Positions 8,821 to 56,554 of a stretch of 64,000 bases of DNA are shown piece by piece. Under the pieces are notes generated by a model that was not told the DNA's origin, did no database searches, and saw nothing but the letters and a program-made list of their open reading frames with translations. The stretch lies in NCBI RefSeq assembly GCF_055900595.2, contig NZ_CM148325.1. One strand, given 5' to 3'. The position numbers and the translations under genes are program-made. The stretch's first letter is position 1. Every line of letters starts with the position of its first letter.

Positions 8821-10274
<1,454 letters not shown>

Positions 10275-10284
10275 GGATGCGACT

Positions 10285-10929
10285 ATGATGCAACCATCAA
10301 TCAAACCTGCTGACGAGCATTCAGCTGGCGATATCATTGCGCGCATCGGCAGCCTGACGCGTATGCTGCGCGACAGTTTGCGGGAACTGGGGCTGGATCA
10401 GGCCATTGCCGAAGCGGCGGAAGCCATCCCCGATGCGCGCGATCGTTTGTACTATGTTGTGCAGATGACCGCCCAGGCTGCGGAGCGGGCGCTGAACAGT
10501 GTTGAGGCGTCACAACCGCATCAGGATCAAATGGAGAAATCAGCAAAAGCGTTAACCCAACGTTGGGATGACTGGTTTGCCGATCCGATTGACCTTGCCG
10601 ACGCCCGTGAACTGGTAACAGATACACGACAATTTCTGGCAGATGTACCCGCGCATACCAGCTTTACTAACGCGCAACTGCTGGAAATCATGATGGCGCA
10701 GGATTTTCAGGATCTCACCGGGCAGGTCATTAAGCGGATGATGGATGTCATTCAGGAGATCGAACGCCAGTTGCTGATGGTGCTGTTGGAAAACATCCCG
10801 GAACAGGAGTCGCGTCCAAAACGTGAAAACCAGAGTTTGCTTAATGGACCTCAGGTCGATACCAGCAAAGCCGGTGTGGTAGCCAGTCAGGATCAGGTGG
10901 ACGATTTGTTGGATAGTCTTGGATTTTGA
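10285..10929 (+). CDS. cheZ: CheY-P phosphatase CheZ (214 aa)
   Basis: ORF track 10255..10929 trimmed to ATG 10285 ([22 protein letters not shown]...); 10255 start would overlap cheY. Confidence 0.94.
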
Positions 10930-10937
10930 TTTGTATT

Positions 10938-11005
10938 GCCTGATGTGGCGTGACCACGTCATATCAGGCGGTCTGATAAGGCGATGACGCCGCATCCGAC
11001 AAACG
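10938..11005. repeat. REP-type extragenic palindromes between cheZ and flhB
   Basis: Imperfect palindromes gcctgatgtggcgtgaccacgtcatatcaggcg and ggcgatgacgccgcatccgacaaacg with the GCCGCATCCG REP core. Confidence 0.6.
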
Positions 11006-11130
11006 CACACTATGCTTGATGTGTGGCAGCAAAAGCCCTAAATCCCGCCTGTTTTGCCCCTTACTCAAACCATTGAACGCTTTGCGCTCTGGCATCATTC
11101 ACGCTTAATACTCTTTCCAGGATTGGCGAC

Positions 11131-12279
11131 GTGTCTGACGAGAGCGACGACAAAACAGAAGCCCCCACACCTCACCGACTAGAAAAAGCGCGGGAAGAGG
11201 GGCAAATCCCGCGTTCCCGTGAACTGACCTCACTGCTGATTTTGCTGGTGGGCGTTAGTGTTATCTGGTTTGGCGGTGTGTCGCTGGCCCGTCGATTGTC
11301 GGGCATGCTCTCCGCTGGGCTGCATTTTGATCACAGTATTATCAAAGACCCGAATCTGATCCTCGGGCAGATTATTCTGCTGATCAGAGAAGCCATGCTG
11401 GCGCTGCTGCCACTGATTAGCGGCGTGGTACTGGTGGCGCTCATTTCTCCGGTCATGCTGGGAGGGCTGGTATTTAGCGGCAAATCCTTGCAGCCGAAGT
11501 TTTCCAAACTCAACCCGCTACCGGGCATTAAACGGATGTTCTCGGCTCAGACTGGCGCGGAGTTGCTTAAAGCAATTTTGAAAACCATCCTGGTTGGCAG
11601 CGTGACGGGGTTTTTTCTCTGGCATCACTGGCCGCAGATGATGCGCTTAATGGCCGAGTCTCCGATTACCGCCATGGGTAATGCGATGGATTTGGTAGGG
11701 CTATGCGCACTGCTGGTGGTGCTTGGTGTCATTCCAATGGTGGGATTTGACGTCTTTTTCCAAATCTTCAGCCACCTGAAAAAGCTGCGAATGTCGCGGC
11801 AGGATATTCGTGATGAGTTCAAACAAAGCGAAGGCGACCCCCATGTTAAAGGACGGATCCGTCAGATGCAGCGAGCTGCCGCACGGCGTCGGATGATGGC
11901 CGATGTGCCGAAAGCGGATGTCATTGTCAATAACCCGACCCACTATTCGGTAGCGTTGCAGTATGACGAAAACAAAATGAGCGCACCGAAAGTGGTCGCT
12001 AAAGGTGCAGGGCTGGTCGCGCTGCGCATTCGTGAAATTGGCGCTGAAAATAACGTCCCGACGCTTGAAGCGCCGCCGCTGGCGCGAGCGCTGTATCGAC
12101 ATGCGGAGATTGGTCAACAAATCCCGGGTCAACTGTACGCCGCGGTGGCGGAAGTGCTGGCCTGGGTCTGGCAACTGAAACGCTGGCGTCTGGCTGGTGG
12201 ACAGCGCCCTGTACAACCTACTCATCTTCCGGTGCCGGAAGCCCTGGATTTTATTAACGAGAAACCGACCCATGAGTAA
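11131..12279 (+). CDS. flhB: Flagellar type III export gate protein FlhB (382 aa), GTG start
   Basis: ORF track; MSDESDDKTEAPTPHRLEKAREEGQIPRSRELTSL... Confidence 0.95.
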   Translation: MSDESDDKTEAPTPHRLEKAREEGQIPRSRELTSLLILLVGVSVIWFGGVSLARRLSGMLSAGLHFDHSIIKDPNLILGQIILLIREAMLALLPLISGVVLVALISPVMLGGLVFSGKSLQPKFSKLNPLPGIKRMFSAQTGAELLKAILKTILVGSVTGFFLWHHWPQMMRLMAESPITAMGNAMDLVGLCALLVVLGVIPMVGFDVFFQIFSHLKKLRMSRQDIRDEFKQSEGDPHVKGRIRQMQRAAARRRMMADVPKADVIVNNPTHYSVALQYDENKMSAPKVVAKGAGLVALRIREIGAENNVPTLEAPPLARALYRHAEIGQQIPGQLYAAVAEVLAWVWQLKRWRLAGGQRPVQPTHLPVPEALDFINEKPTHE

Positions 12280-14350
12280 TCTGGCCGCGATGCTGCGCCT
12301 GCCCGCAAACCTGAAATCGACACAATGGCAGATCCTTGCCGGACCGATTTTGATCCTGTTGATCTTGTCGATGATGGTGCTGCCACTGCCCGCATTCATA
12401 CTCGACCTGTTGTTTACCTTCAATATTGCCTTGTCGATCATGGTGTTGCTGGTGGCGATGTTTACCCAGCGCACGCTTGAGTTTGCTGCGTTTCCGACCA
12501 TTCTGTTGTTTACCACGCTGTTGCGTCTGGCACTTAACGTGGCTTCAACCCGTATCATTTTAATGGAAGGGCATACCGGCGCGGCGGCGGCAGGGAAGGT
12601 GGTCGAAGCGTTCGGTCACTTCCTCGTTGGTGGCAATTTCGCTATCGGTATCGTGGTGTTTGTCATTCTCGTGATCATCAACTTTATGGTCATTACCAAA
12701 GGTGCCGGGCGTATCGCAGAAGTGGGTGCGCGCTTTGTTCTCGATGGTATGCCGGGTAAGCAGATGGCGATTGACGCCGACCTTAACGCCGGATTGATTG
12801 GTGAAGATGAGGCGAAAAAACGCCGCTCCGAAGTGACTCAGGAAGCCGATTTTTACGGCTCAATGGACGGGGCAAGTAAGTTTGTTCGCGGCGATGCCAT
12901 CGCCGGGATCCTCATCATGGTCATTAACGTTGTCGGCGGGTTGCTGGTCGGCGTGCTGCAACATGGCATGAGCATGGGACACGCGGCGGAAAGTTATACG
13001 CTATTGACCATTGGCGACGGTCTGGTGGCACAAATTCCGGCGCTGGTGATTTCTACCGCCGCGGGGGTCATCGTTACGCGTGTCAGCACCGATCAGGATG
13101 TTGGCGAGCAGATGGTGAATCAGCTTTTCAGTAACCCAAGCGTTATGTTGTTAAGCGCCGCCGTGCTCGGTTTACTCGGCCTGGTGCCTGGAATGCCGAA
13201 CCTGGTATTTTTGCTGTTCACTGCCGGATTGCTCGGGCTGGCCTGGTGGATACGCGGACGCGAACAAAAAGCGCCTGCCGAACCCAAACCGGTAAAAATG
13301 GCAGAGAATAATACCGTTGTCGAAGCGACGTGGAACGATGTACAACTGGAAGATTCTCTGGGAATGGAAGTGGGTTATCGACTGATCCCGATGGTCGATT
13401 TCCAGCAGGATGGTGAGTTGTTGGGCCGTATACGCAGTATCCGCAAGAAATTTGCCCAGGAGATGGGATTTCTGCCGCCAGTGGTGCACATTCGCGACAA
13501 TATGGATCTGCAACCTGCCCGCTATCGCATTTTGATGAAAGGCGTGGAGATTGGCAGTGGTGATGCTTATCCGGGGCGCTGGCTGGCGATTAACCCTGGA
13601 ACCGCTGCCGGGACGTTACCTGGTGAGGCGACCGTCGATCCGGCATTTGGCCTGAATGCTATCTGGATTGAAAGTGCGCTAAAAGAACAGGCGCAGATTC
13701 AGGGGTACACAGTGGTTGAGGCCAGCACGGTGGTAGCAACGCATCTTAACCACCTCATTAGCCAGCATGCCGCAGAGCTGTTTGGTCGTCAGGAGGCGCA
13801 ACAGCTGTTGGATCGCGTCGCCCAGGAGATGCCAAAGCTGACGGAAGATCTCGTTCCTGGCGTCGTCACGCTCACCACACTGCATAAAGTGCTGCAAAAT
13901 CTCCTCGATGAAAAAGTACCGATTCGCGATATGCGCACCATTCTCGAAACGCTGGCGGAACATGCGCCCATCCAAAGCGATCCACATGAATTAACCGCCG
14001 TCGTGCGCGTGGCGTTGGGACGGGCGATTACCCAGCAGTGGTTTCCTGGCAAAGATGAAGTCCATGTTATTGGCCTCGATACACCGCTGGAACGTTTGTT
14101 ACTACAGGCGCTGCAGGGCGGGGGAGGACTGGAGCCAGGGCTGGCGGATCGTTTACTGGCGCAAACTCAGGAAGCGCTATCCCGTCAGGAGATGCTGGGT
14201 GCGCCGCCAGTATTGTTGGTGAACCACGCGCTGCGACCATTATTGTCTCGCTTCCTGCGCCGCAGCTTGCCGCAGTTAGTGGTCCTGTCGAATCTGGAAC
14301 TGTCTGATAACCGACATATCCGCATGACGGCGATAATTGGCGGCAAATAA
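12272..14350 (+). CDS. flhA: Flagellar type III export gate protein FlhA (692 aa)
   Basis: ORF track 12197..14350 trimmed to ATG 12272 (MSNLAAMLRLPANLKSTQWQILAGP...); overlaps flhB end by 8 nt. Confidence 0.94.
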   Translation: MSNLAAMLRLPANLKSTQWQILAGPILILLILSMMVLPLPAFILDLLFTFNIALSIMVLLVAMFTQRTLEFAAFPTILLFTTLLRLALNVASTRIILMEGHTGAAAAGKVVEAFGHFLVGGNFAIGIVVFVILVIINFMVITKGAGRIAEVGARFVLDGMPGKQMAIDADLNAGLIGEDEAKKRRSEVTQEADFYGSMDGASKFVRGDAIAGILIMVINVVGGLLVGVLQHGMSMGHAAESYTLLTIGDGLVAQIPALVISTAAGVIVTRVSTDQDVGEQMVNQLFSNPSVMLLSAAVLGLLGLVPGMPNLVFLLFTAGLLGLAWWIRGREQKAPAEPKPVKMAENNTVVEATWNDVQLEDSLGMEVGYRLIPMVDFQQDGELLGRIRSIRKKFAQEMGFLPPVVHIRDNMDLQPARYRILMKGVEIGSGDAYPGRWLAINPGTAAGTLPGEATVDPAFGLNAIWIESALKEQAQIQGYTVVEASTVVATHLNHLISQHAAELFGRQEAQQLLDRVAQEMPKLTEDLVPGVVTLTTLHKVLQNLLDEKVPIRDMRTILETLAEHAPIQSDPHELTAVVRVALGRAITQQWFPGKDEVHVIGLDTPLERLLLQALQGGGGLEPGLADRLLAQTQEALSRQEMLGAPPVLLVNHALRPLLSRFLRRSLPQLVVLSNLELSDNRHIRMTAIIGGK

Positions 14351-29829: not shown

Positions 29830-29863
29830 TGAGGCCTGCTAAACAGCAAAACGGAGACGCGTG

Positions 29864-30385
29864 ATGGCTATTATTCTCGGCATTGACCCGGGTTCGCGCG
29901 TGACCGGCTATGGCGTCATCCGCCAGGTAGGCAGGCAGCTGTCCTACCTGGGTAGCGGATGTATACGCACCAAAGTGGATGATTTACCGTCTCGTCTTAA
30001 GCTCATCTATGCGGGCGTGACGGAAATCATCACCCAGTTCCAGCCTGATTATTTCGCCATTGAACAAGTCTTTATGGCTAAAAATGCCGACTCGGCCCTG
30101 AAGCTGGGGCAGGCGCGTGGCGTGGCGATTGTGGCGGCGGTGAATCAGGAATTACCGGTATTTGAATACGCGGCACGTCAGGTAAAGCAAACGGTGGTAG
30201 GTATTGGTAGTGCCGAAAAAAGCCAGGTGCAGCATATGGTTCGCACCTTGCTGAAACTCCCCGCTAATCCTCAGGCGGATGCCGCTGATGCGCTGGCAAT
30301 TGCCATCACCCACTGCCACGTTAGTCAGAATGCGATGCAGATGAGCGAATCGCGGCTGAACCTGGCTCGCGGGAGACTGCGTTAA
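29864..30385 (+). CDS. ruvC: Holliday junction resolvase RuvC (173 aa)
   Basis: ORF track 29861..30385 trimmed to ATG 29864 ([19 protein letters not shown]...). Confidence 0.95.
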
Positions 30386-30443
30386 TAAGATTCAGGGAAT
30401 ATTCATTGCCGACTGGCAATTACTAGGGCAGGGAGTGCCTCTG

Positions 30444-31952
30444 ATGACAATGTTAAAAACAGTAAGATTCTGGCTCGTCGAATTAATACTGCTGGCAGTT
30501 GTGTTGCCCGTATTAGCGATAATTTTTTACTCCTGTACTCTATTTTTTCCTTTTTACGCCGAAGGCGGTATCTTGGAGTTTAGCGCCACACTAATAGTGA
30601 CTGCTTTAAGTGGTCTGGCGTTAGGAAGGGTAAGAAGTGCCTTTGTCCCGCTAAATTTATCATTCATTTCCCTGATCCTCCCGGAAACCCTGCTACTTTT
30701 TTATACACTTGTTGTCTGGCTAACATTACTTATTATTACGGATAGTGAGTTTAATAGTGGACTATTTTATACCGGGCAGGATTGGTTGGGCATTTTCAGC
30801 CTATTAACTGAGGCTGCGACGGAAGACGAATTTTTTACGCCATCGTTAATGCAGGTGGCTACGCCTGCGATACCGGCTGTGGGTATTCTGGTCTATATTG
30901 TCTCACTGACGCATGCTGCAAGAGGGCGAAACCGGCTGACGAACATTGTAGGATGGCGTTATATCGTAATCCCGGTTTTAATGGCGGTTATAAGCATTGC
31001 GGGATTACTCGCATGGCAAATCCATGACAGAAGTGAAAGAAAAGTGGTCAGTGTGCCAGAAACGCAGCTTTCTGAGCGCTTGGCATTAAAAGATTATTCT
31101 CCCTTTACCGCCAATAATAAATTAACACACCTCAATGAACAGGCCACGCTGGCGATAGCGAGTAACTGGCCGCAACTGAATGGCGCGACAGCGCTCTATC
31201 CACTGTATGCCTCGATGGCGCAAATGGTTTATCGCAATCTGAATGAGGAAAGTGCCGAGGATTATATAAAGTGCTGGAAAACCCAGGGAGCCTACACAGC
31301 TTTGATAGAAGGGCGCGCGGATCTTATTTTTGTCGCCGAACCCTCTGATGAGCAACGAGAGCAGGCGCGTAACAGTGGCGTTGGTTTGCATTTTTATCCT
31401 CTGGCGCGAGAGGCTTTTGTTTTTGTCACTCATAAAGATAATCCGGTTACAGCGTTGAGTGATAAACAGATCCGCCAAATCTATTCTGGCGACATCAATA
31501 ACTGGCAGGATGTTGGCGGGCGCGACGCACGGATCATGCCTTTTCAGCGACCGGAAGGCTCAGGTAGCCAGACAATTATGTTAGCGGCTGTGATGAAGCA
31601 GGAAAAAATGCGCAAACCGCTGGAAACGGAACGGATAAGCGAAATGCAGGGGTTGATACGTAATGTTGCCAGCTATCAGAACAGTACAAATGCTTTGGGG
31701 TATACGTTCCGGTACTACTCAACACAAATGCACCACAGCGATAATCTCCGCTTGCTAGCGGTAAATGGTATTGCGCCAACGGCAGAAAATATTCGCAGCG
31801 GGAAGTACCCCTATACGGTAACGGTTTATATGGTTAGCGCGGGAAGACCTGACGCGCAGGTGCAAAAAATAATCGACTGGTTTTTGAGTGCGCAGGGGCA
31901 GAAAATGGTCGCTGAAACCGGATATATCCCGTTGGGAAAATCAACCAGGTGA
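30444..31952 (+). CDS. Accessory membrane protein: about 190-aa multi-pass TM region fused to a C-terminal PstS-like periplasmic binding domain (502 aa from ATG 30444); function unknown
   Basis: ORF track 30435..31952; ATG 30444 follows RBS gggag; 5-6 hydrophobic segments then PstS-like residues (GSGSQT, YTFRYY); not recalled in K-12. Confidence 0.7.
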   Translation: MTMLKTVRFWLVELILLAVVLPVLAIIFYSCTLFFPFYAEGGILEFSATLIVTALSGLALGRVRSAFVPLNLSFISLILPETLLLFYTLVVWLTLLIITDSEFNSGLFYTGQDWLGIFSLLTEAATEDEFFTPSLMQVATPAIPAVGILVYIVSLTHAARGRNRLTNIVGWRYIVIPVLMAVISIAGLLAWQIHDRSERKVVSVPETQLSERLALKDYSPFTANNKLTHLNEQATLAIASNWPQLNGATALYPLYASMAQMVYRNLNEESAEDYIKCWKTQGAYTALIEGRADLIFVAEPSDEQREQARNSGVGLHFYPLAREAFVFVTHKDNPVTALSDKQIRQIYSGDINNWQDVGGRDARIMPFQRPEGSGSQTIMLAAVMKQEKMRKPLETERISEMQGLIRNVASYQNSTNALGYTFRYYSTQMHHSDNLRLLAVNGIAPTAENIRSGKYPYTVTVYMVSAGRPDAQVQKIIDWFLSAQGQKMVAETGYIPLGKSTR

Positions 31953-31964
31953 ACATACGTAAAT

Positions 31965-31993
31965 GGCAAAAACCATCACCAATGGTTTTTGCC
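31965..31993. terminator. Strong hairpin between convergent accessory ORF and yebB (putative bidirectional terminator)
   Basis: Perfect 12-bp stem ggcaaaaaccat / atggtttttgcc with cacc loop; no clean U-tract on either side. Confidence 0.55.
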
Positions 31994-32029
31994 ATGATAT
32001 GCGACTCACACTGCTTCTGGCAGCCTGGT

Positions 32030-32602
32030 TTAGTCATTATGACTGGCATGGATTAACGTCAACCCCGGATGATGCCACAAACTGGCTGGCGTGACGGTTT
32101 TACGCTCCCACGGAATAGAACCTAAGAACCAGAATTTCCAGAAAGTGAGTTTTGCATTTGGATTGCTGTTTAGCAGTTCTCCAAACGTCTCTATTTCACC
32201 CACCGGAATACATAACGCCTCTTTATAAATATCAAAAACGAATTTTGAACAGAACTGGCGGGAAGATTCGTATTTAAAACCGGTGTGGTAGAACTTATGC
32301 AACCGGGCAGGGACCTTTTCGACAAGAGCAAGTTTCTGCTCTGCGGTTAAACCTCCTGCCAGGCGGCGAACACCGTAGCGTTGCTCGGTCGACCGTTCAA
32401 TAAATCGTGACAAAGTTGTGATTGTGGAGAGCGGAACTCGACTCTCCGCAACCAGGTAATCATCACCGTCATGTCCGATGATTATCCCCACATGGTTGCT
32501 CCAGCATTTCGAGGCTGCAGAGATTTGCCCAAACAGGCGAGCACCGATGCAGGTAAAAACAATATCACCGGTTTCATATTTAGCTGGGTAATTTATTTTC
32601 AC
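32030..32602 (-). CDS. yebB: YebB, permuted papain-fold (NlpC/P60-superfamily, YiiX/YaeF-like) putative amidase (190 aa)
   Basis: ORF track; [46 protein letters not shown]... Cys/His pair; no signal peptide. Confidence 0.8.
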
Positions 32603-32695
32603 TATATCAATCCATTATTTATATATAAAACAGCATCTATCTTTCGTGATGGTAAAGCATTAGCATTGTATTGTAATAATGACAAGGAATGTTTT

Positions 32696-33520
32696 ATGCG
32701 GTTATTTATTAATGTGATAATGATAGTTTCGATCAGTCAATGCGTGAATGTATTTGCTCAAGATAATGTCATTCGCTATCCCTGGCGATATGGACGTATT
32801 TCTTTAAATGAGAATAATGAGTTTGTGCCTCAAATTATTCATATGCGTGATGATATCTACGGCGTGGGTGAAGTTGGTGCAAGCCTTAACGATGCGAGAA
32901 TGGCGCAAAGTGGTGTCACCGTGAGGCTTAGCGTTATACAGCAGGGGCAGGTGGTGAATGCTTTACTGGATTTCTACAATAGCAATAATCAACCTGCTTA
33001 TATATTTGAAGGCGGTTTATTGTCCTGCAATAAAGCCTTTGACATCACAACAAACAACATTGTCCTTGATGGGATGTGTGGAATTTATGATGGGGTCGAT
33101 GGCTGGCAAGTTATTCCTGCGGGTGAGCATTATAAAGAATCGTTTTCACTCACTCAGGCTTTTGAATTCTTGCCGGGAAAACATCATTATAAAATTAATG
33201 CCGGAGGTTTTATCATCAGAGTCGGGGATGATATTTTTGCAAGAGAAGATGCCGAAAGCATTCTTTTTGATTTGATTAACTGGCGATATGGCTATGTGCT
33301 AAAAAGTTATGAAAGGGTGTCAAAGGGGGATTTGATGGCAGGATATTATGCTCTGTATGAATACTCAGGCGCTGACATAATTGATGAGTATGATATTTAC
33401 TCAAACCAGGTGTCGATTGATCTTAATGGTGACGAGTTAGCACATACGGAGTCCTATCAGTGGCGAATTGATAGCGGAATGATCCCGGAAAAATTCAGCG
33501 TTCAGGGACTCGCTGAATGA
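32696..33520 (+). CDS. Accessory Sec-signal periplasmic/secreted protein of unknown function (274 aa from ATG 32696)
   Basis: ORF track 32471..33520 trimmed to ATG 32696 after RBS aagga; N-terminus MRLFINVIMIVSISQCVNVFA-QD is a signal peptide with VFA cleavage motif; AT-rich. Confidence 0.65.
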   Translation: MRLFINVIMIVSISQCVNVFAQDNVIRYPWRYGRISLNENNEFVPQIIHMRDDIYGVGEVGASLNDARMAQSGVTVRLSVIQQGQVVNALLDFYNSNNQPAYIFEGGLLSCNKAFDITTNNIVLDGMCGIYDGVDGWQVIPAGEHYKESFSLTQAFEFLPGKHHYKINAGGFIIRVGDDIFAREDAESILFDLINWRYGYVLKSYERVSKGDLMAGYYALYEYSGADIIDEYDIYSNQVSIDLNGDELAHTESYQWRIDSGMIPEKFSVQGLAE

Positions 33521-33557
33521 ATCGTCCTCTACCTGCTTGCCAGATACAGAGGCGCGG

Positions 33558-34127
33558 ATGAATTTATCAAGCGTATTCAATCAGCTTTTAATCTCATTAG
33601 CTCTTGCCGGGACGTTGATATCAAGCAGCTATCTCATGGAAGCTCACTACCCGCGTTTCAGGAAGCCAATTGCGTTCTTTTACTTCTTCTTAGCAATTTA
33701 TACCAGTTATGCTGCCGTTCTGGAGTATGAGTACCACCGCACTAGCTTGACTACGCTCGCAAAAGTTTCTTCGGTTCGTTATACCAGTAATTTTGAGCGT
33801 AGCGCCTCGCACTCCTGCAATTTACTGCGGGGAGGAAGGATTGATTGCACGGGGCTGTATGCCTATGACCTGACCTGGCAGATTGACGGTAAGACCTGGA
33901 ATTTGCATGTTGAGGACAAGCGTATAAAACCAGGATTCACCATGTGCGTGAAGGTTGTAAAAGATCGCCCCGCCATCGGGAAATCCTGTGAAAACGCGTT
34001 TTTCAATGTCAGCCCTTTGCCGATTCTGATAGCTATATGGGCAATCAGCGCATTTATATTTGCGGTCTTACTCCTTCACAGACTAAAAAAATGCCGCAAA
34101 TGGAAGCACGCCAGCAAGGGGCGTTGA
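33558..34127 (+). CDS. Accessory inner-membrane protein, 2 N-terminal TM + Cys-containing loop + C-terminal TM and basic tail (189 aa from ATG 33558)
   Basis: ORF track 33537..34127 (TTG) trimmed to ATG 33558 after RBS gagg; hydrophobic segments at about residues 8-27, 36-56, 163-183; 37 nt after upstream ORF. Confidence 0.6.
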   Translation: MNLSSVFNQLLISLALAGTLISSSYLMEAHYPRFRKPIAFFYFFLAIYTSYAAVLEYEYHRTSLTTLAKVSSVRYTSNFERSASHSCNLLRGGRIDCTGLYAYDLTWQIDGKTWNLHVEDKRIKPGFTMCVKVVKDRPAIGKSCENAFFNVSPLPILIAIWAISAFIFAVLLLHRLKKCRKWKHASKGR

Positions 34128-34229
34128 AAAATTGGGCATTAGAAGTGTGATGTAAGGGGGATTCATACAGAATTTCTGATGCTGTGAGCAAAAGGATTAT
34201 CATTTCTGAAATGATTTAATATCATCCCT

Positions 34230-34249
34230 CGCTGGATATCTATCCAGCA
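34230..34249 (+). promoter_or_regulatory. LexA (SOS) box of the ruvAB promoter
   Basis: cgCTGGatatctatCCAGca, the known CTGG-N8-CCAG variant SOS box, about 50 nt upstream of ruvA GTG. Confidence 0.85.
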
Positions 34250-34298
34250 TTTTTTTATCATACAGCATTATCTTTGATTCATTACGCAGGAGCGTCAT

Positions 34299-34910
34299 GT
34301 GATAGGCAGACTCAGAGGCATCATCATTGAAAAACAACCCCCACTGGTATTAATTGAAGTGGGCGGCGTAGGCTATGAAGTGCATATGCCGATGACCTGT
34401 TTTTATGAACTCCCTGAAGCGGGTCAGGAAGCGATCGTTTTCACCCACTTTGTGGTGCGTGAAGACGCGCAACTGCTGTACGGTTTTAACAATAAACAAG
34501 AGCGCACGTTGTTCAAAGAGTTGATCAAAACCAACGGCGTTGGGCCTAAACTGGCATTGGCAATCCTCTCCGGAATGTCAGCGCAGCAGTTCGTTAATGC
34601 CGTTGAGCGTGAAGAAGTGGGGGCGCTGGTGAAACTGCCGGGTATTGGCAAAAAAACCGCCGAACGCTTGATTGTCGAAATGAAAGACCGATTTAAAGGT
34701 TTACATGGCGATCTCTTTACGCCAGCTGCCGACCTGGTACTCACGTCACCTGCCAGCCCGGCGACCGATGATGCCGAACAGGAAGCGGTTGCCGCGCTGG
34801 TGGCGCTGGGCTATAAACCACAAGAAGCAAGCCGCATGGTGAGCAAAATCGCTCGCCCTGACGCCAGCAGTGAAACATTAATTCGCGAAGCCCTGCGCGC
34901 CGCGTTATGA
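34299..34910 (+). CDS. ruvA: Holliday junction branch-migration protein RuvA (203 aa), GTG start
   Basis: ORF track; [43 protein letters not shown]... Confidence 0.96.
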
Positions 34911-34915
34911 GGTAA

Positions 34916-35929
<1,014 letters not shown>

Positions 35930-35967
35930 GTTGAATAAGGTATTCAAGCCGCTTCCGACATTGGCGA

Positions 35968-36058
35968 TAAGCCTGATGCGACGCTGTTCGCGTCTTATCA
36001 GGCCTACCAGAAGTAGCGAACCGTAGGTCGGATAAGGCGCTCGCGCCGCATCCGACAA
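35968..36058. repeat. REP/BIME cluster between ruvB and znuB
   Basis: gcctgatgcgacgctgttcgcgtcttatcaggcctac and cgtaggtcggataaggcgctcgcgccgcatccgacaa REP units. Confidence 0.65.
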
Positions 36059-49491: not shown

Positions 49492-49511
49492 TACTGTATA
49501 AAATCACAGTT
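49492..49511 (+). promoter_or_regulatory. LexA (SOS) box of yebG
   Basis: taCTGTataaaatcACAGtt, canonical CTGT-N8-ACAG, just upstream of yebG. Confidence 0.85.
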
Positions 49512-51407: not shown

Positions 51408-54154
<2,747 letters not shown>

Positions 54155-54177
54155 GGCATGCTCCAGGCCGAAAAAGC

Positions 54178-54833
54178 CTAGCGTAATGGAATGATATCGC
54201 CTTGCCAACCCTGTGATGAACGCTGACCGACTAACAATAATGAACCACGATCGGCGCGAACGATGAGACGACCATGTTCATCCCATAGTGCACTGTTACC
54301 ACGGGCATTTGCCATCAGCACGGCAATTGAGTACTGATGTGAAAAAAATTGTAAGCGGCGGGTCGACGCCAGCAGGTCGGGTTCCCCCAGACATTGCCCT
54401 GTCGTAAATAGTGAACAGGTCGGATCCATATCCATACCTTGCGGTTGTTCATCGACCACCGTGATGGTTCTGGAACGACGGCCCAGACATGCACCATGAC
54501 TCTGATGGTAGATCCCTGGCGTTTTTCGCCACGGTGCGAACACCGCAATTCCACGAATAAAGCGATCGTTATATTCAACGGGAAGGCCGGCAATGATGGT
54601 CATTCGCCAGGTCGTTGCAGCATAACAAAGCGGGTCTAACAGCGAGAGATCGGGGGGGCAGGAAGGGCACGTCGCGAATAATCACACCCCAGTAAAGAAA
54701 GCGATGGAAAAACTAACAGCTGACATTGTTGCCTGGCGGCGGCCCTCACAAACTCCAGATGATGAGCTACCTGTTCGGTCAGTGAGGTTTTACGAGGCTC
54801 ATATTGCGCTGCTGCAACTTTCCAGAACGACAT
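54178..54833 (-). pseudogene. yobB: yobB (carbon-nitrogen hydrolase family) split by a -1 frameshift in a G7/C7 homopolymer
   Basis: N-terminal ORF 54636..54833 (MSFWKVAAAQYEP...RRALPAPP) and C-terminal ORF 54178..54603 (MTIIAGLPVEY...) join into one protein if one base is added to the run at 54652-54658. Confidence 0.75.
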
Positions 54834-54934
54834 AATGACTTCCTTTTCAAAATGACTGCAAATTATGGGTGCGGTTTAGAAAATACTCATAATTTAGCAG
54901 GCGTTATGTAAGAAAGTGTAACTCTGTATAAGTT

Positions 54935-55165
54935 TTATTTAAGTTTGGGCTCGTAAGGTAAACGTGACAGATTGACCGAAGCCAAACGGTGGGCGATAAG
55001 CCGCTCGCGAAACCAGCTGCGCAAATGTTCAGGCTGTTCACGTTCAACCGCTTCAGCGATCACCGGCATATTGTAGCGTTCTTTAAATGCCACCCCGGCT
55101 GCCGCCAAATCGACATTCACTTTATCCATTTCTGTTTGATCCAGTTTAGCCAGATTCTTCAGCAT
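54935..55165 (-). CDS. holE: DNA polymerase III theta subunit HolE (76 aa)
   Basis: ORF track 54935..55252 trimmed to ATG at 55165 ([56 protein letters not shown]...). Confidence 0.9.
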
Positions 55166-55303
55166 TCTTAATCTCCTCATCATTCGCGGGCAAAAGTTAC
55201 TAAGAGTGAGCCTGGATGGCAAGCCGGAATTGATGATCCTCGACTCAGACATTAGACAAGGTTATGCTCTGTAAAAAAGTTATTACAAAAAGGAATAGAT
55301 AAT

Positions 55304-55678
55304 ATGACTTCAACTGCACGCTCCCTTCGCTACGCGCTGGCAATCCTGACCACTACGTTGGTGACACCTTCCGTCTGGGCACATGCGCATTTAACGCATC
55401 AGTATCCTGCGGCAAACGCGCAAGTGACAGCTGCCCCGCAGGCAATCACTTTAAACTTCTCGGAAGGCGTTGAAACAGGATTCAGTGGTGCAAAAATCAC
55501 GGGGCCAAAAAACGAAAATATTAAAACATTACCGGCGAAGCGGAATGAGCAGGACCAAAAGCAACTGATTGTTCCACTGGCCGATTCGCTGAAACCCGGA
55601 ACCTACACCGTTGACTGGCATGTTGTTTCGGTGGACGGGCATAAAACGAAAGGACACTATACCTTTAGCGTGAAATAA
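55304..55678 (+). CDS. yobA: YobA, CopC-family periplasmic copper-binding protein (124 aa)
   Basis: ORF track; MTSTARSLRYALAILTTTLVTPSVWAHAHLTHQYPAANAQV... Confidence 0.93.
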   Translation: MTSTARSLRYALAILTTTLVTPSVWAHAHLTHQYPAANAQVTAAPQAITLNFSEGVETGFSGAKITGPKNENIKTLPAKRNEQDQKQLIVPLADSLKPGTYTVDWHVVSVDGHKTKGHYTFSVK

Positions 55679-55681
55679 ATC

Positions 55682-56554
55682 ATGCTGGCGTTTACCTGGA
55701 TCGCGCTGCGATTTATCCATTTCACCTCGCTGATGCTGGTTTTTGGCTTCGCAATGTACGGTGCCTGGCTGGCCCCCTTAACGATTCGTCGCTTGCTGAC
55801 GAAGCGTTTTCTGCGTTTACAACAGCACGCTGCCGTCTGGAGTTTGAGCAGTGCCACTGCAATGCTCGCCGTTCAGGGCGGGTTGATGGGAACGGGATGG
55901 TCAGATGTATTTTCGCCAAACATTTGGCAGGCTGTTTTGCAAACGCAGTTTGGTGGCGTCTGGTTATGGCAAATTGTTCTCGCCCTCGTAACGTTGATCG
56001 TCGCCCTTATGCAACCGCGGAATATGCCACGTTTGCTGTTTATGCTCACTACCGCGCAATTTATTCTGCTGGCGGGAGTCGGGCATGCGACGCTGAATGA
56101 AGGGGTAACGGCGAAAATCCATCAGACTAATCACGCGATTCACCTGATCTGTGCGGCGGCGTGGTTTGGAGGATTACTTCCGGTGCTCTGGTGTATGCAA
56201 CTCATCAAAGGCCGTTGGCGACACCAGGCTATTCAGGCGCTGATGCGTTTTTCCTGGTGCGGGCATTTTGCGGTGATCGGCGTACTGGCAAGCGGCGTGC
56301 TTAATGCATTGTTGATTACCAGATTTCCCCCCACGCTTACGACTTACTGGGGCCAACTCTTATTGCTCAAAGCCATCCTGGTGATGATTATGGTGGTCAT
56401 CGCGCTGGCTAATCGTTATGTTCTTGTACCGCGCATGAGGCAGGATGAAGATCGTGCGGCTCCCTGGTTTGTGTGGATGACTAAACTCGAATGGGCGATA
56501 GGTGCGGTAGTGCTGGTGATCATCAGCCTGCTTGCGACTCTCGAACCTTTTTGA
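55682..56554 (+). CDS. yebZ: YebZ, CopD-family inner membrane protein (290 aa)
   Basis: ORF track; MLAFTWIALRFIHFTSLMLVFGFAMYGAWLAPLTIRRLL... Confidence 0.93.
   Translation: MLAFTWIALRFIHFTSLMLVFGFAMYGAWLAPLTIRRLLTKRFLRLQQHAAVWSLSSATAMLAVQGGLMGTGWSDVFSPNIWQAVLQTQFGGVWLWQIVLALVTLIVALMQPRNMPRLLFMLTTAQFILLAGVGHATLNEGVTAKIHQTNHAIHLICAAAWFGGLLPVLWCMQLIKGRWRHQAIQALMRFSWCGHFAVIGVLASGVLNALLITRFPPTLTTYWGQLLLLKAILVMIMVVIALANRYVLVPRMRQDEDRAAPWFVWMTKLEWAIGAVVLVIISLLATLEPF

Follow-up and report, generated by a model that had tools for sequence, protein, structure and literature searches.

The ruvAB operator of Escherichia coli as a candidate terminator for upstream genes, and the variable interval between ruvC and ruvA

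In a 64,000-nucleotide stretch of Escherichia coli DNA (NCBI RefSeq assembly GCF_055900595.2, contig NZ_CM148325.1; hereafter the window), two rare open reading frames (ORF1 and ORF2) lie directly upstream of the DNA-damage-inducible (SOS) operon ruvAB and point in the same direction, and the question raised by this locus is whether the pair is coupled to ruvAB transcription or separated from it. A sequence-only reading of positions 34128-34298 had described an accessory cassette sitting directly on the SOS promoter with no intervening terminator. The landmarks it named, i.e., the ORF2 stop codon at 34127, the LexA box at 34230-34249, the ruvA GTG start codon at 34299, an AT-rich palindrome and two copies of the 8-mer atttctga, are all found in place by direct reading. 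The explanation that we favor, with middling confidence, is that the operator segment serves as a LexA site, as part of the ruvAB promoter and as a terminator or attenuator for the upstream gene, and that the cassette resides on a long haplotype. The features on which this explanation depends are as follows.

34128-34221 (+): 3' untranslated tail of ORF2, lineage-specific, with no homology to K-12 or to any of the other genera, which resumes at 34222
34222-34298 (+): conserved ruvAB control region, near-identical in K-12, Escherichia sp. E1V33, Pseudocitrobacter and two metagenome loci
34230-34249: LexA (SOS) operator of ruvAB, identical to that of K-12
34231-34256 (+): terminator-like hairpin made of operator (34231-34248) and promoter spacer, with a 7-bp stem containing four G-C pairs, the loop AUCU, an A and U7 (34250-34256)
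34233-34261 (+): ruvAB sigma-70 promoter from a promoter scan, with -35 TGGATA at 34233-34238, a 17-nt spacer and -10 TATCAT at 34256-34261
34288-34292 (+): ruvA Shine-Dalgarno sequence AGGAG, by direct reading
34299-34910 (+): ruvA, with a GTG start, from the ORF list and the RefSeq annotation of matching loci
34919-35929 (+): ruvB, from the same sources

We have high confidence in this anatomy, in which 34128-34298 divides into a lineage-specific ORF2 tail (34128-34221) and the known ruvAB control region (34222-34298). The box read directly at 34230-34249, cgCTGGatatctatCCAGca, contains the CTG-N10-CAG palindrome with an AT-rich center (CTGGATATCTATCCAG, 34232-34247). It was scored with a weight matrix trained on LexA sites other than those of ruvA and yebG. 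Over the 64 kb the matrix ranked the site TACTGTATAAAATCACAGTT at 49492-49511 first (20.6 bits); this is presumably the SOS box of yebG, and it was used as a positive control. The ruvAB box came second (18.9 bits, inside the training-site range of 12.7-27.1), which is far above chance and agrees with the earlier description of the box as intact. LexA binding and DNA-damage induction are established for K-12 ruvAB, and we assume LexA control of ruvAB in the window because the operator sequence is identical. The -35 hexamer sits within the LexA box, i.e., the operator overlaps the core promoter, and the ruvAB transcript probably starts near 34267-34269. The same -35 and -10 hexamers are given for ruvAB in PMC3946193.

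A terminator-like hairpin in the operator

Read as RNA, the operator is GCUGGAU-AUCU-AUCCAGC followed by A and UUUUUUU, and this segment was flagged by a terminator scan. The hairpin folds at -10.6 kcal/mol (z -4.9), which none of 200 shuffles equaled, and the energies of the Escherichia form in general lie between -9.1 and -10.6 kcal/mol. Both the stem-loop and the U-tract of an intrinsic terminator are present, 123 nt past the stop codon of ORF2 and in line with that co-directional gene end. The earlier statement that no GC-rich hairpin with a U-tract separates the cassette from ruvA thus holds for 34128-34229 but not for the operator itself. What stands of the claim that the cassette lies directly on the SOS promoter is that two rare co-directional genes are followed by a short 3' tail alone before the control region; what does not stand is the absence of a terminator-like element.

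A window-wide scan for compact hairpins with a run of six or more T behind them returned nine motifs, all nine of them intergenic, and six of the eight besides the operator lie 40-127 nt past a co-directional stop codon. The operator hairpin is the second weakest of the nine. Because all nine are intergenic and mostly 3' of genes, this class of motif appears to mark gene ends in this genome. No description of the ruvAB operator as terminator-like was found in the literature searched.

The hairpin would be absent from the ruvAB transcript, whose start we infer about 10 nt past the U-run, and would be carried only by transcripts arriving from upstream. Since it lies upstream of that start, the transcripts of upstream genes must cross it. 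Under the mechanism we propose, one DNA segment would bind LexA (34230-34249) and carry the -35 element and spacer of the ruvAB promoter, and ORF1-ORF2 transcripts, starting in the spacer between ORF1 and its upstream neighbor yebB, would run into it. Proteins bound to DNA can act as roadblocks to RNA polymerase, and LexA, when bound, would block polymerase coming from upstream; with LexA absent, the hairpin and U7 would be transcribed, resulting in termination or strong attenuation. In either state ruvAB would be governed by its own SOS promoter. The short stem and the A before the U-run make some read-through possible in the Escherichia form, including partial read-through from the cassette into ruvAB.

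The interval between ruvC and the operator

Comparison with other genomes indicates what is fixed at this junction and what varies. Homology between the window and K-12 breaks off near 32616 and returns at 34222, which is nine bases short of the stem start at 34231. Between these points K-12 has 183 nt with yobI, a gene of 21 codons that points the same way as ruvA, and a co-directional gene just upstream of the ruvAB promoter is therefore normal in E. coli. Whatever the upstream gene, homology likewise resumes at 34222 or 34231 in Escherichia sp. E1V33, Pseudocitrobacter vendiensis and two metagenome loci. The box and the T-run are invariant across six loci from at least three genera, and from the upstream stop codon to the ruvA start the operator hairpin is the sole terminator-like element in the window, K-12, E1V33, P. 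vendiensis and the loci L003 and L004.

To this we added a metagenome scan for the exact operator 18-mer, which returned 120 loci with the box fixed by the search pattern. About 105 of the 120 continue into ruvA. The E. coli order ruvC-yebB-yobI-ruvA accounts for 51 loci, ruvC lies directly before ruvA in 40 enterobacterial contigs, one has the order ruvC, PstS-like gene, yebB, ruvA (L099), and one carries an ORF2-type 3' tail. The C-terminus of ruvC could be located in 36 of the ruvC-adjacent loci, and in these contigs its stop codon falls 5, 8 or 11 nt before the box, which leaves no room for another terminator. In this arrangement the stem runs 2-3 bp beyond the LexA 20-mer, to 9-10 bp, folds at -14 to -15.8 kcal/mol and is followed by T6-7 without a spacer base. 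The added pairs are G-C/A-U in most lineages and A-U/A-U in the type of L021. By comparison, 15 copies of the 18-mer occur at unrelated sites, and none of them is followed by a T-run. In the ruvC-adjacent form, the ruvAB operator and promoter seem to incorporate a textbook terminator of the upstream gene. In E. coli, ruvC is not SOS-regulated and ruvAB is, and a terminator at the operator, if real, would supply this regulatory separation.

The explanation closest in strength to a terminator, which we consider unlikely, is that the hairpin and T-run are a by-product of the LexA palindrome and a T-rich spacer, with upstream transcripts stopped by a roadblock, by Rho or by the weakness of their promoters, or simply tolerated. 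Any LexA site is a palindrome, the T-run falls within the spacer and runs into the -10 element, and the Escherichia stem is short. Such a by-product would not, however, be expected to extend past the LexA 20-mer in just those loci where the ruvC stop codon is 5-11 nt away, nor to keep that extension with different base pairs across lineages, and the motif class to which it belongs is, in the window, found only between genes and mostly at their 3' ends.

Several further points weigh against a terminator. The operator hairpin, with a stem of just 7 bp and one A before the U-run, may be of modest efficiency in Escherichia, and a rough hand-computed score of the d'Aubenton-Carafa type comes out close to zero. 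The base changes that keep the added stem pairs represent roughly a single independent event, and because the metagenome search required the exact 18-mer, it sampled only lineages that keep this operator sequence. No published 3' ends for yobI or ruvA were found in the supplements of PMC7815308, PMC9023263, PMC12259150 and PMC11890068. Lastly, the palindrome is needed for LexA in any case and the T-run consists of the promoter spacer and the first T of the -10 element, so that constraint at the DNA level could explain the conservation. Taking both sides together, we judge the evidence that the operator hairpin functions as a terminator to be evenly poised.

In its gene content, the interval between the ruvC stop codon and the operator is a hotspot of variable genes in Enterobacteriaceae, ranging from 5-11 nt to 3.8 kb, and the window holds its fullest known form, with the PstS-like gene, a divergent yebB, ORF1 and ORF2. 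We tentatively extend the argument to the family as a whole: the ruvAB operator may be a conserved three-in-one element that insulates ruvAB, both repressed and induced, from an upstream gene that is ruvC in most genera, yobI in K-12 and ORF1-ORF2 here. The terminator being tied to the promoter, new genes could enter the short gap between the ruvC stop codon and the operator without disturbing ruvAB, which would have made the site a hotspot that gathers envelope genes, among them one for an orphan protein resembling type VI immunity proteins (ORF1).

If this is true, a compact element separates a damage-inducible operon from constitutive neighbors, which would explain both the regulatory difference between ruvC and ruvAB at a spacing of 5-11 nt and the tolerance of the site for repeated gene gain and loss. 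For annotation, a palindromic operator with a T-run behind it deserves to be counted among possible terminators. How SOS regulation is understood stays the same; the modest new point is the likely second use of the operator as an upstream terminator, along with the hotspot between ruvC and the operator.

The E1V33 site offers an observation of its own. Its ruvA upstream and leader region (L006 5545-5685) resembles those of Pseudocitrobacter and L004 rather than that of E. coli; its ruvAB is 89.5% identical to the window and its yebB-ORF1 region 94% identical. This suggests a mosaic formed by recombination between genera.

The ORF1-ORF2 pair and its surroundings

The two genes of the cassette are the following.

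32696-33520 (+): ORF1, 274 amino acids (aa), a secreted protein with the Sec-type signal peptide MRLFINVIMIVSISQCVNVFA/QD
33558-34127 (+): ORF2, 189 aa, with three predicted transmembrane helices around a beta-rich domain and four conserved Cys, from alignment and an AlphaFold2 model

Both are present in 19 of 5,426 complete E. coli genomes (8 of the 19 also have the PstS-like gene), and the 99.6% that lack them keep the same ruvAB control region. The cassette is thus accessory in the sense of being rare, but not in the sense of a mobile insertion, as its junctions show no direct or inverted flanking repeats and no integrase or transposase genes. Searches of PADLOC, PHROG, Pfam and NCBIfam gave no matches for ORF1 or ORF2, no phage matched the cassette proteins, and the only plasmid match was a remote one to ORF1.

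The alternative that ORF1-ORF2 is a horizontally acquired defense or competition island targeting the site upstream of ruvA would account for its patchy distribution (the 19 genomes), for the low GC content of ORF1 (38-41% vs 52-55%), for the relatives of ORF1 in type VI effector/immunity modules and for the unrelated gene that takes the ORF2 slot in E1V33. We nevertheless find it improbable. None of the marks of a mobile element or defense island, i.e., mobility genes, repeats or a known defense model, was found at the locus or in its proteins, and phages and plasmids offered nothing beyond the one remote match. In other genera the order yebB-ORF1-(ORF2)-ruvA is kept at 47-72% protein identity (L003, L004, L007), and the same site is occupied in Pseudocitrobacter and in a distant metagenome-assembled genome. 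Strains bearing the cassette also share the flanking ruvAB-znu haplotype (98-99% identity, vs 95-97.6% for other strains), which indicates homologous recombination of a long chromosomal tract. The pair accordingly reads, in these comparisons, as rare, not mobile and inherited on a long rare E. coli haplotype, and the site as a variable chromosomal one whose apparently old contents were moved between lineages by homologous recombination. The earlier suggestion that placement beside a damage-inducible promoter marks an acquired stress or defense module finds no backing here, given the missing database matches, the same gene order in other genera and the presence of yobI in this place in K-12.

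The slot of ORF2 is empty in Pseudocitrobacter and L004 and holds an unrelated 228-aa membrane protein in E1V33. In some lineages the cassette appears to be decaying. In E. coli MFDS1022581 (L011 1926-2974), ORF1 is frameshifted and annotated as two genes. The length of ORF2 among strains is 181, 189 or 194 aa.

ORF1 and ORF2 are separated by 37 nt, each has a ribosome-binding site, and together they probably form one envelope-directed operon with its own non-SOS promoter. That promoter presumably lies in the yebB/ORF1 spacer (32603-32695), in which a block, ATAAAGAATTAGCATTGTATT, is conserved across genera; no sigma-70 match of at least 9/12 was found on the + strand of the spacer, and the ORF1 promoter was not located. 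An extended -10-like sequence, TGTAATAAT (32672-32680), is too near the ORF1 start codon to leave a ribosome-binding site.

Coupling of the cassette to the SOS promoter, be it by read-through into ruvAB or by SOS control of the cassette, is in our view very doubtful, for although the genes are co-directional and 171 nt apart, 34128-34229 has neither a hairpin with a U-tract nor the composition of a Rho loading site and the modest Escherichia hairpin makes read-through plausible, notably after LexA cleavage, the hairpin and U7 do lie between the cassette and the ruvA start, the LexA box, coming after the cassette, cannot repress its initiation, the best LexA score in the yebB/ORF1 spacer is 5.1 bits (vs 18.9 and 20.6 for the two boxes), and nearly all E. 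coli have the same control region without any cassette. SOS-linked expression of the cassette, as had been proposed, is unsupported: no LexA box was found upstream of it. The LexA-like site inside ORF1 (33351-33370; CTGTATGAATACTCAG at 33353), about 190 nt before ORF2, was rejected as an SOS box, as its score of 9.1 bits is lower than that of any training site and about four sites as good occur per shuffled 64-kb window; it is treated as chance.

Homologues of ORF1 form six clusters among 5.8 billion proteins and two among 100,044 species representatives, are always found between yebB and ruvA and all keep an N-terminus like the signal peptide of ORF1. More distant relatives are found elsewhere. 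A tblastn search against plasmids gave one remote match to ORF1 (E 3e-6; in pairwise comparison 29% identity over 188 aa, E 6e-14; L013), and there PAAR, VgrG and a 200-aa HExxH protein that matches Aspzincin_M35 immediately precede the ORF1-like protein and an adjacent paralogue. Salmonella type VI clusters (L014/L015) contain Hcp, VgrG, a homologous HExxH protein and an ORF1-family protein. The module common to E. coli (L013 5151-7733) and Salmonella (L014 5163-6831) consists of VgrG, a small HExxH protein and one or two ORF1-family proteins with signal peptides; the E. coli type VI-linked relatives fall in clusters of about 800-1,300 members, yet have no Pfam or NCBIfam family.

PMC7904677 describes an M35-like peptidase of E. 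coli O2:K1, part of a type VI effector module, that inhibited growth if targeted to the periplasm and not otherwise. Because such an effector is toxic only there, a signal peptide on immunity proteins of the ORF1 type fits, and the signal peptide of ORF1 would bring it to the compartment in which the effector acts. The position expected of an immunity gene, directly downstream of its cognate effector, is held only by the distant relatives in L013 and L014/L015; ORF1 itself lies between yebB and ORF2. We tentatively regard ORF1 as an orphan immunity-like protein with no effector beside it, somewhat short of an even call, and the uncharacterized family thereby joins the immunity candidates against M35-like type VI effectors. 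An AlphaFold2 model of ORF1, built from six sequences, was unusable (predicted local distance difference test, pLDDT, 29.6), and an ORF1 profile search against PDB sequences gave nothing (best E 0.71).

The ORF1 frame is open for 75 codons further upstream (from 32471), overlapping the yebB start, and RefSeq has a 349-aa ORF1 in some strains (e.g., WP_248785391.1) and the 274-aa form in others. The start at 32696 is favored because it is conserved together with the signal peptide. We also considered yobI as a relic of the ORF1 signal-peptide region, since the two start alike (MYIFITHFF vs MRLFINVIM). Alignments of the K-12 yebB-ruvA spacer to the cassette were no better than shuffles (z -0.8 to 0.1), and the idea was rejected.

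ORF2 has only 17 representative relatives, and its AlphaFold2 model is of low confidence (pLDDT 61.8). Longer forms with a C-terminal domain are found in L012 (251 aa) and L003 (225 aa), and relative to the former the ORF2 of the window is, by alignment, an in-frame deletion without that domain.

The 3' tail of ORF2 is G-rich and C-poor (C/G 0.3-0.4), a composition unlike that of a Rho loading site, and Rho-dependent termination in 34128-34229 was judged unlikely. The two sequence features pointed out earlier in this tail exist, but neither amounts to much. The 8-mer atttctga (34172 and 34202) is not significant, such a repeat arising in 32% of dinucleotide shuffles, and it is altered in 4 of 6 cassette-bearing strains. 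The palindrome atcatttc-t-gaaatgat (34199-34215) is nominally unusual, an 8+8 palindrome arising in 2% of dinucleotide shuffles, and a mismatch interrupts it in 4 of 6 cassette-bearing strains. Folded as RNA it is very weak (-2.6 kcal/mol, z -0.44), and its reading as a hairpin or terminator was rejected. A 29-nt block holding the palindrome, ggattatcatttctgaaatgatttaat (34193-34221), is identical in L012 (1448-1476), in which ORF2 is 71% identical to that of the window and the remaining 3' tail about 70% identical. The block, whose center is some 61 nt upstream of the putative start of ruvA transcription, may bind a protein or mark where a recombination tract ends.

Further upstream, the gene order is aspS, nudB, yebC and then the following.

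29861-30385: ruvC
30435-31952 (+): PstS-family substrate-binding-like gene, 505 aa (TIGR02136, E 1.1e-33, under the curated cut-off)
32030-32602 (-): yebB, divergent allele, a permuted papain-like enzyme (NF008547, E 6.7e-111)

After yebB come ORF1, ORF2, ruvA, ruvB, znuB and znuC (both on the - strand) and znuA. The PstS-like protein, encoded between ruvC and yebB, has an N-terminal membrane part of several helices and, at its C-terminus, a domain like PstS; its gene is present in 8 of the 5,426 complete E. coli genomes and in the same place in L003 and L099. Between the convergent ends of this gene and yebB lies a perfect 14-bp AT-rich inverted repeat, ATGGCAAAAACCAT / ATGGTTTTTGCCAT (31963-31995). 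The yebB allele is 81% identical to K-12 yebB at the nucleotide level, vs 95-96% in the flanks.

The window as a whole is a mosaic, because its right-hand part matches few genomes and its flh-che part thousands. E. coli strain BE2-5 is 100% identical to the latter (10000-14000), and 3,409 complete genomes match it at 99% or more. In contrast, the right-hand part, from ruv-znu onward (within 27000-56000), is a rare haplotype: its identity to K-12 is 95-96%, and just 2-8 complete genomes match it at 99% or more (only 8 for 52000-56000). An Rfam search of 30000-36000 found no RNA family in 34128-34298 and a single match after ruvB, to naRNA4 (35929-36000; 36.7 bits, below the gathering score of 59.5), probably a REP-type (repetitive extragenic palindromic) element between ruvB and znuB. 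Two related strains have an annotated insertion element of the IS621 family, IS110-like, in the ruvB-znuB region.

Comparison with known systems

Of the two cassette proteins, ORF2 weakly resembles DUF3592 (PF12158-type) proteins in its predicted structure. In the model the two would have in common the layout of a transmembrane helix, a small beta-rich domain and a transmembrane helix, and the top Foldseek matches are nearly all DUF3592. These matches have E values of at least 0.009 and TM-scores of 0.2-0.4 on a model of pLDDT 61.8, however, and a search of ORF2 against Pfam, DUF3592 profile included, gave no match at E up to 10.

With type VI effector/immunity pairs, ORF1 shares its signal peptide and has homologues directly after VgrG-linked, Aspzincin_M35-like proteins in E. 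coli and Salmonella. It differs from such pairs in having no neighboring effector, VgrG or type VI gene, and the identity is 23-29%.

Relative to intrinsic terminators, the operator hairpin is set apart by being embedded in an operator and promoter, so that its bases are also constrained by LexA and RNA polymerase, and by the A between stem and U-run in the Escherichia form. What this candidate terminator has in common with them is a G+C-containing stem of 7 bp (9-10 bp where ruvC adjoins), a tetraloop, a run of U6-7 and a position 5-123 nt past a co-directional stop codon.

The closest known counterpart is the K-12 ruvAB operator and promoter (box CGCTGGATATCTATCCAGCA). Upstream of 34222 the two differ altogether, K-12 having the small-protein gene yobI and the window ORF1-ORF2. 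In contrast, from 34222 to the ruvA start they are identical save for C vs T at 34226, with the box, the -35 TGGATA, the -10 TATCAT and the GTG start codon all alike.

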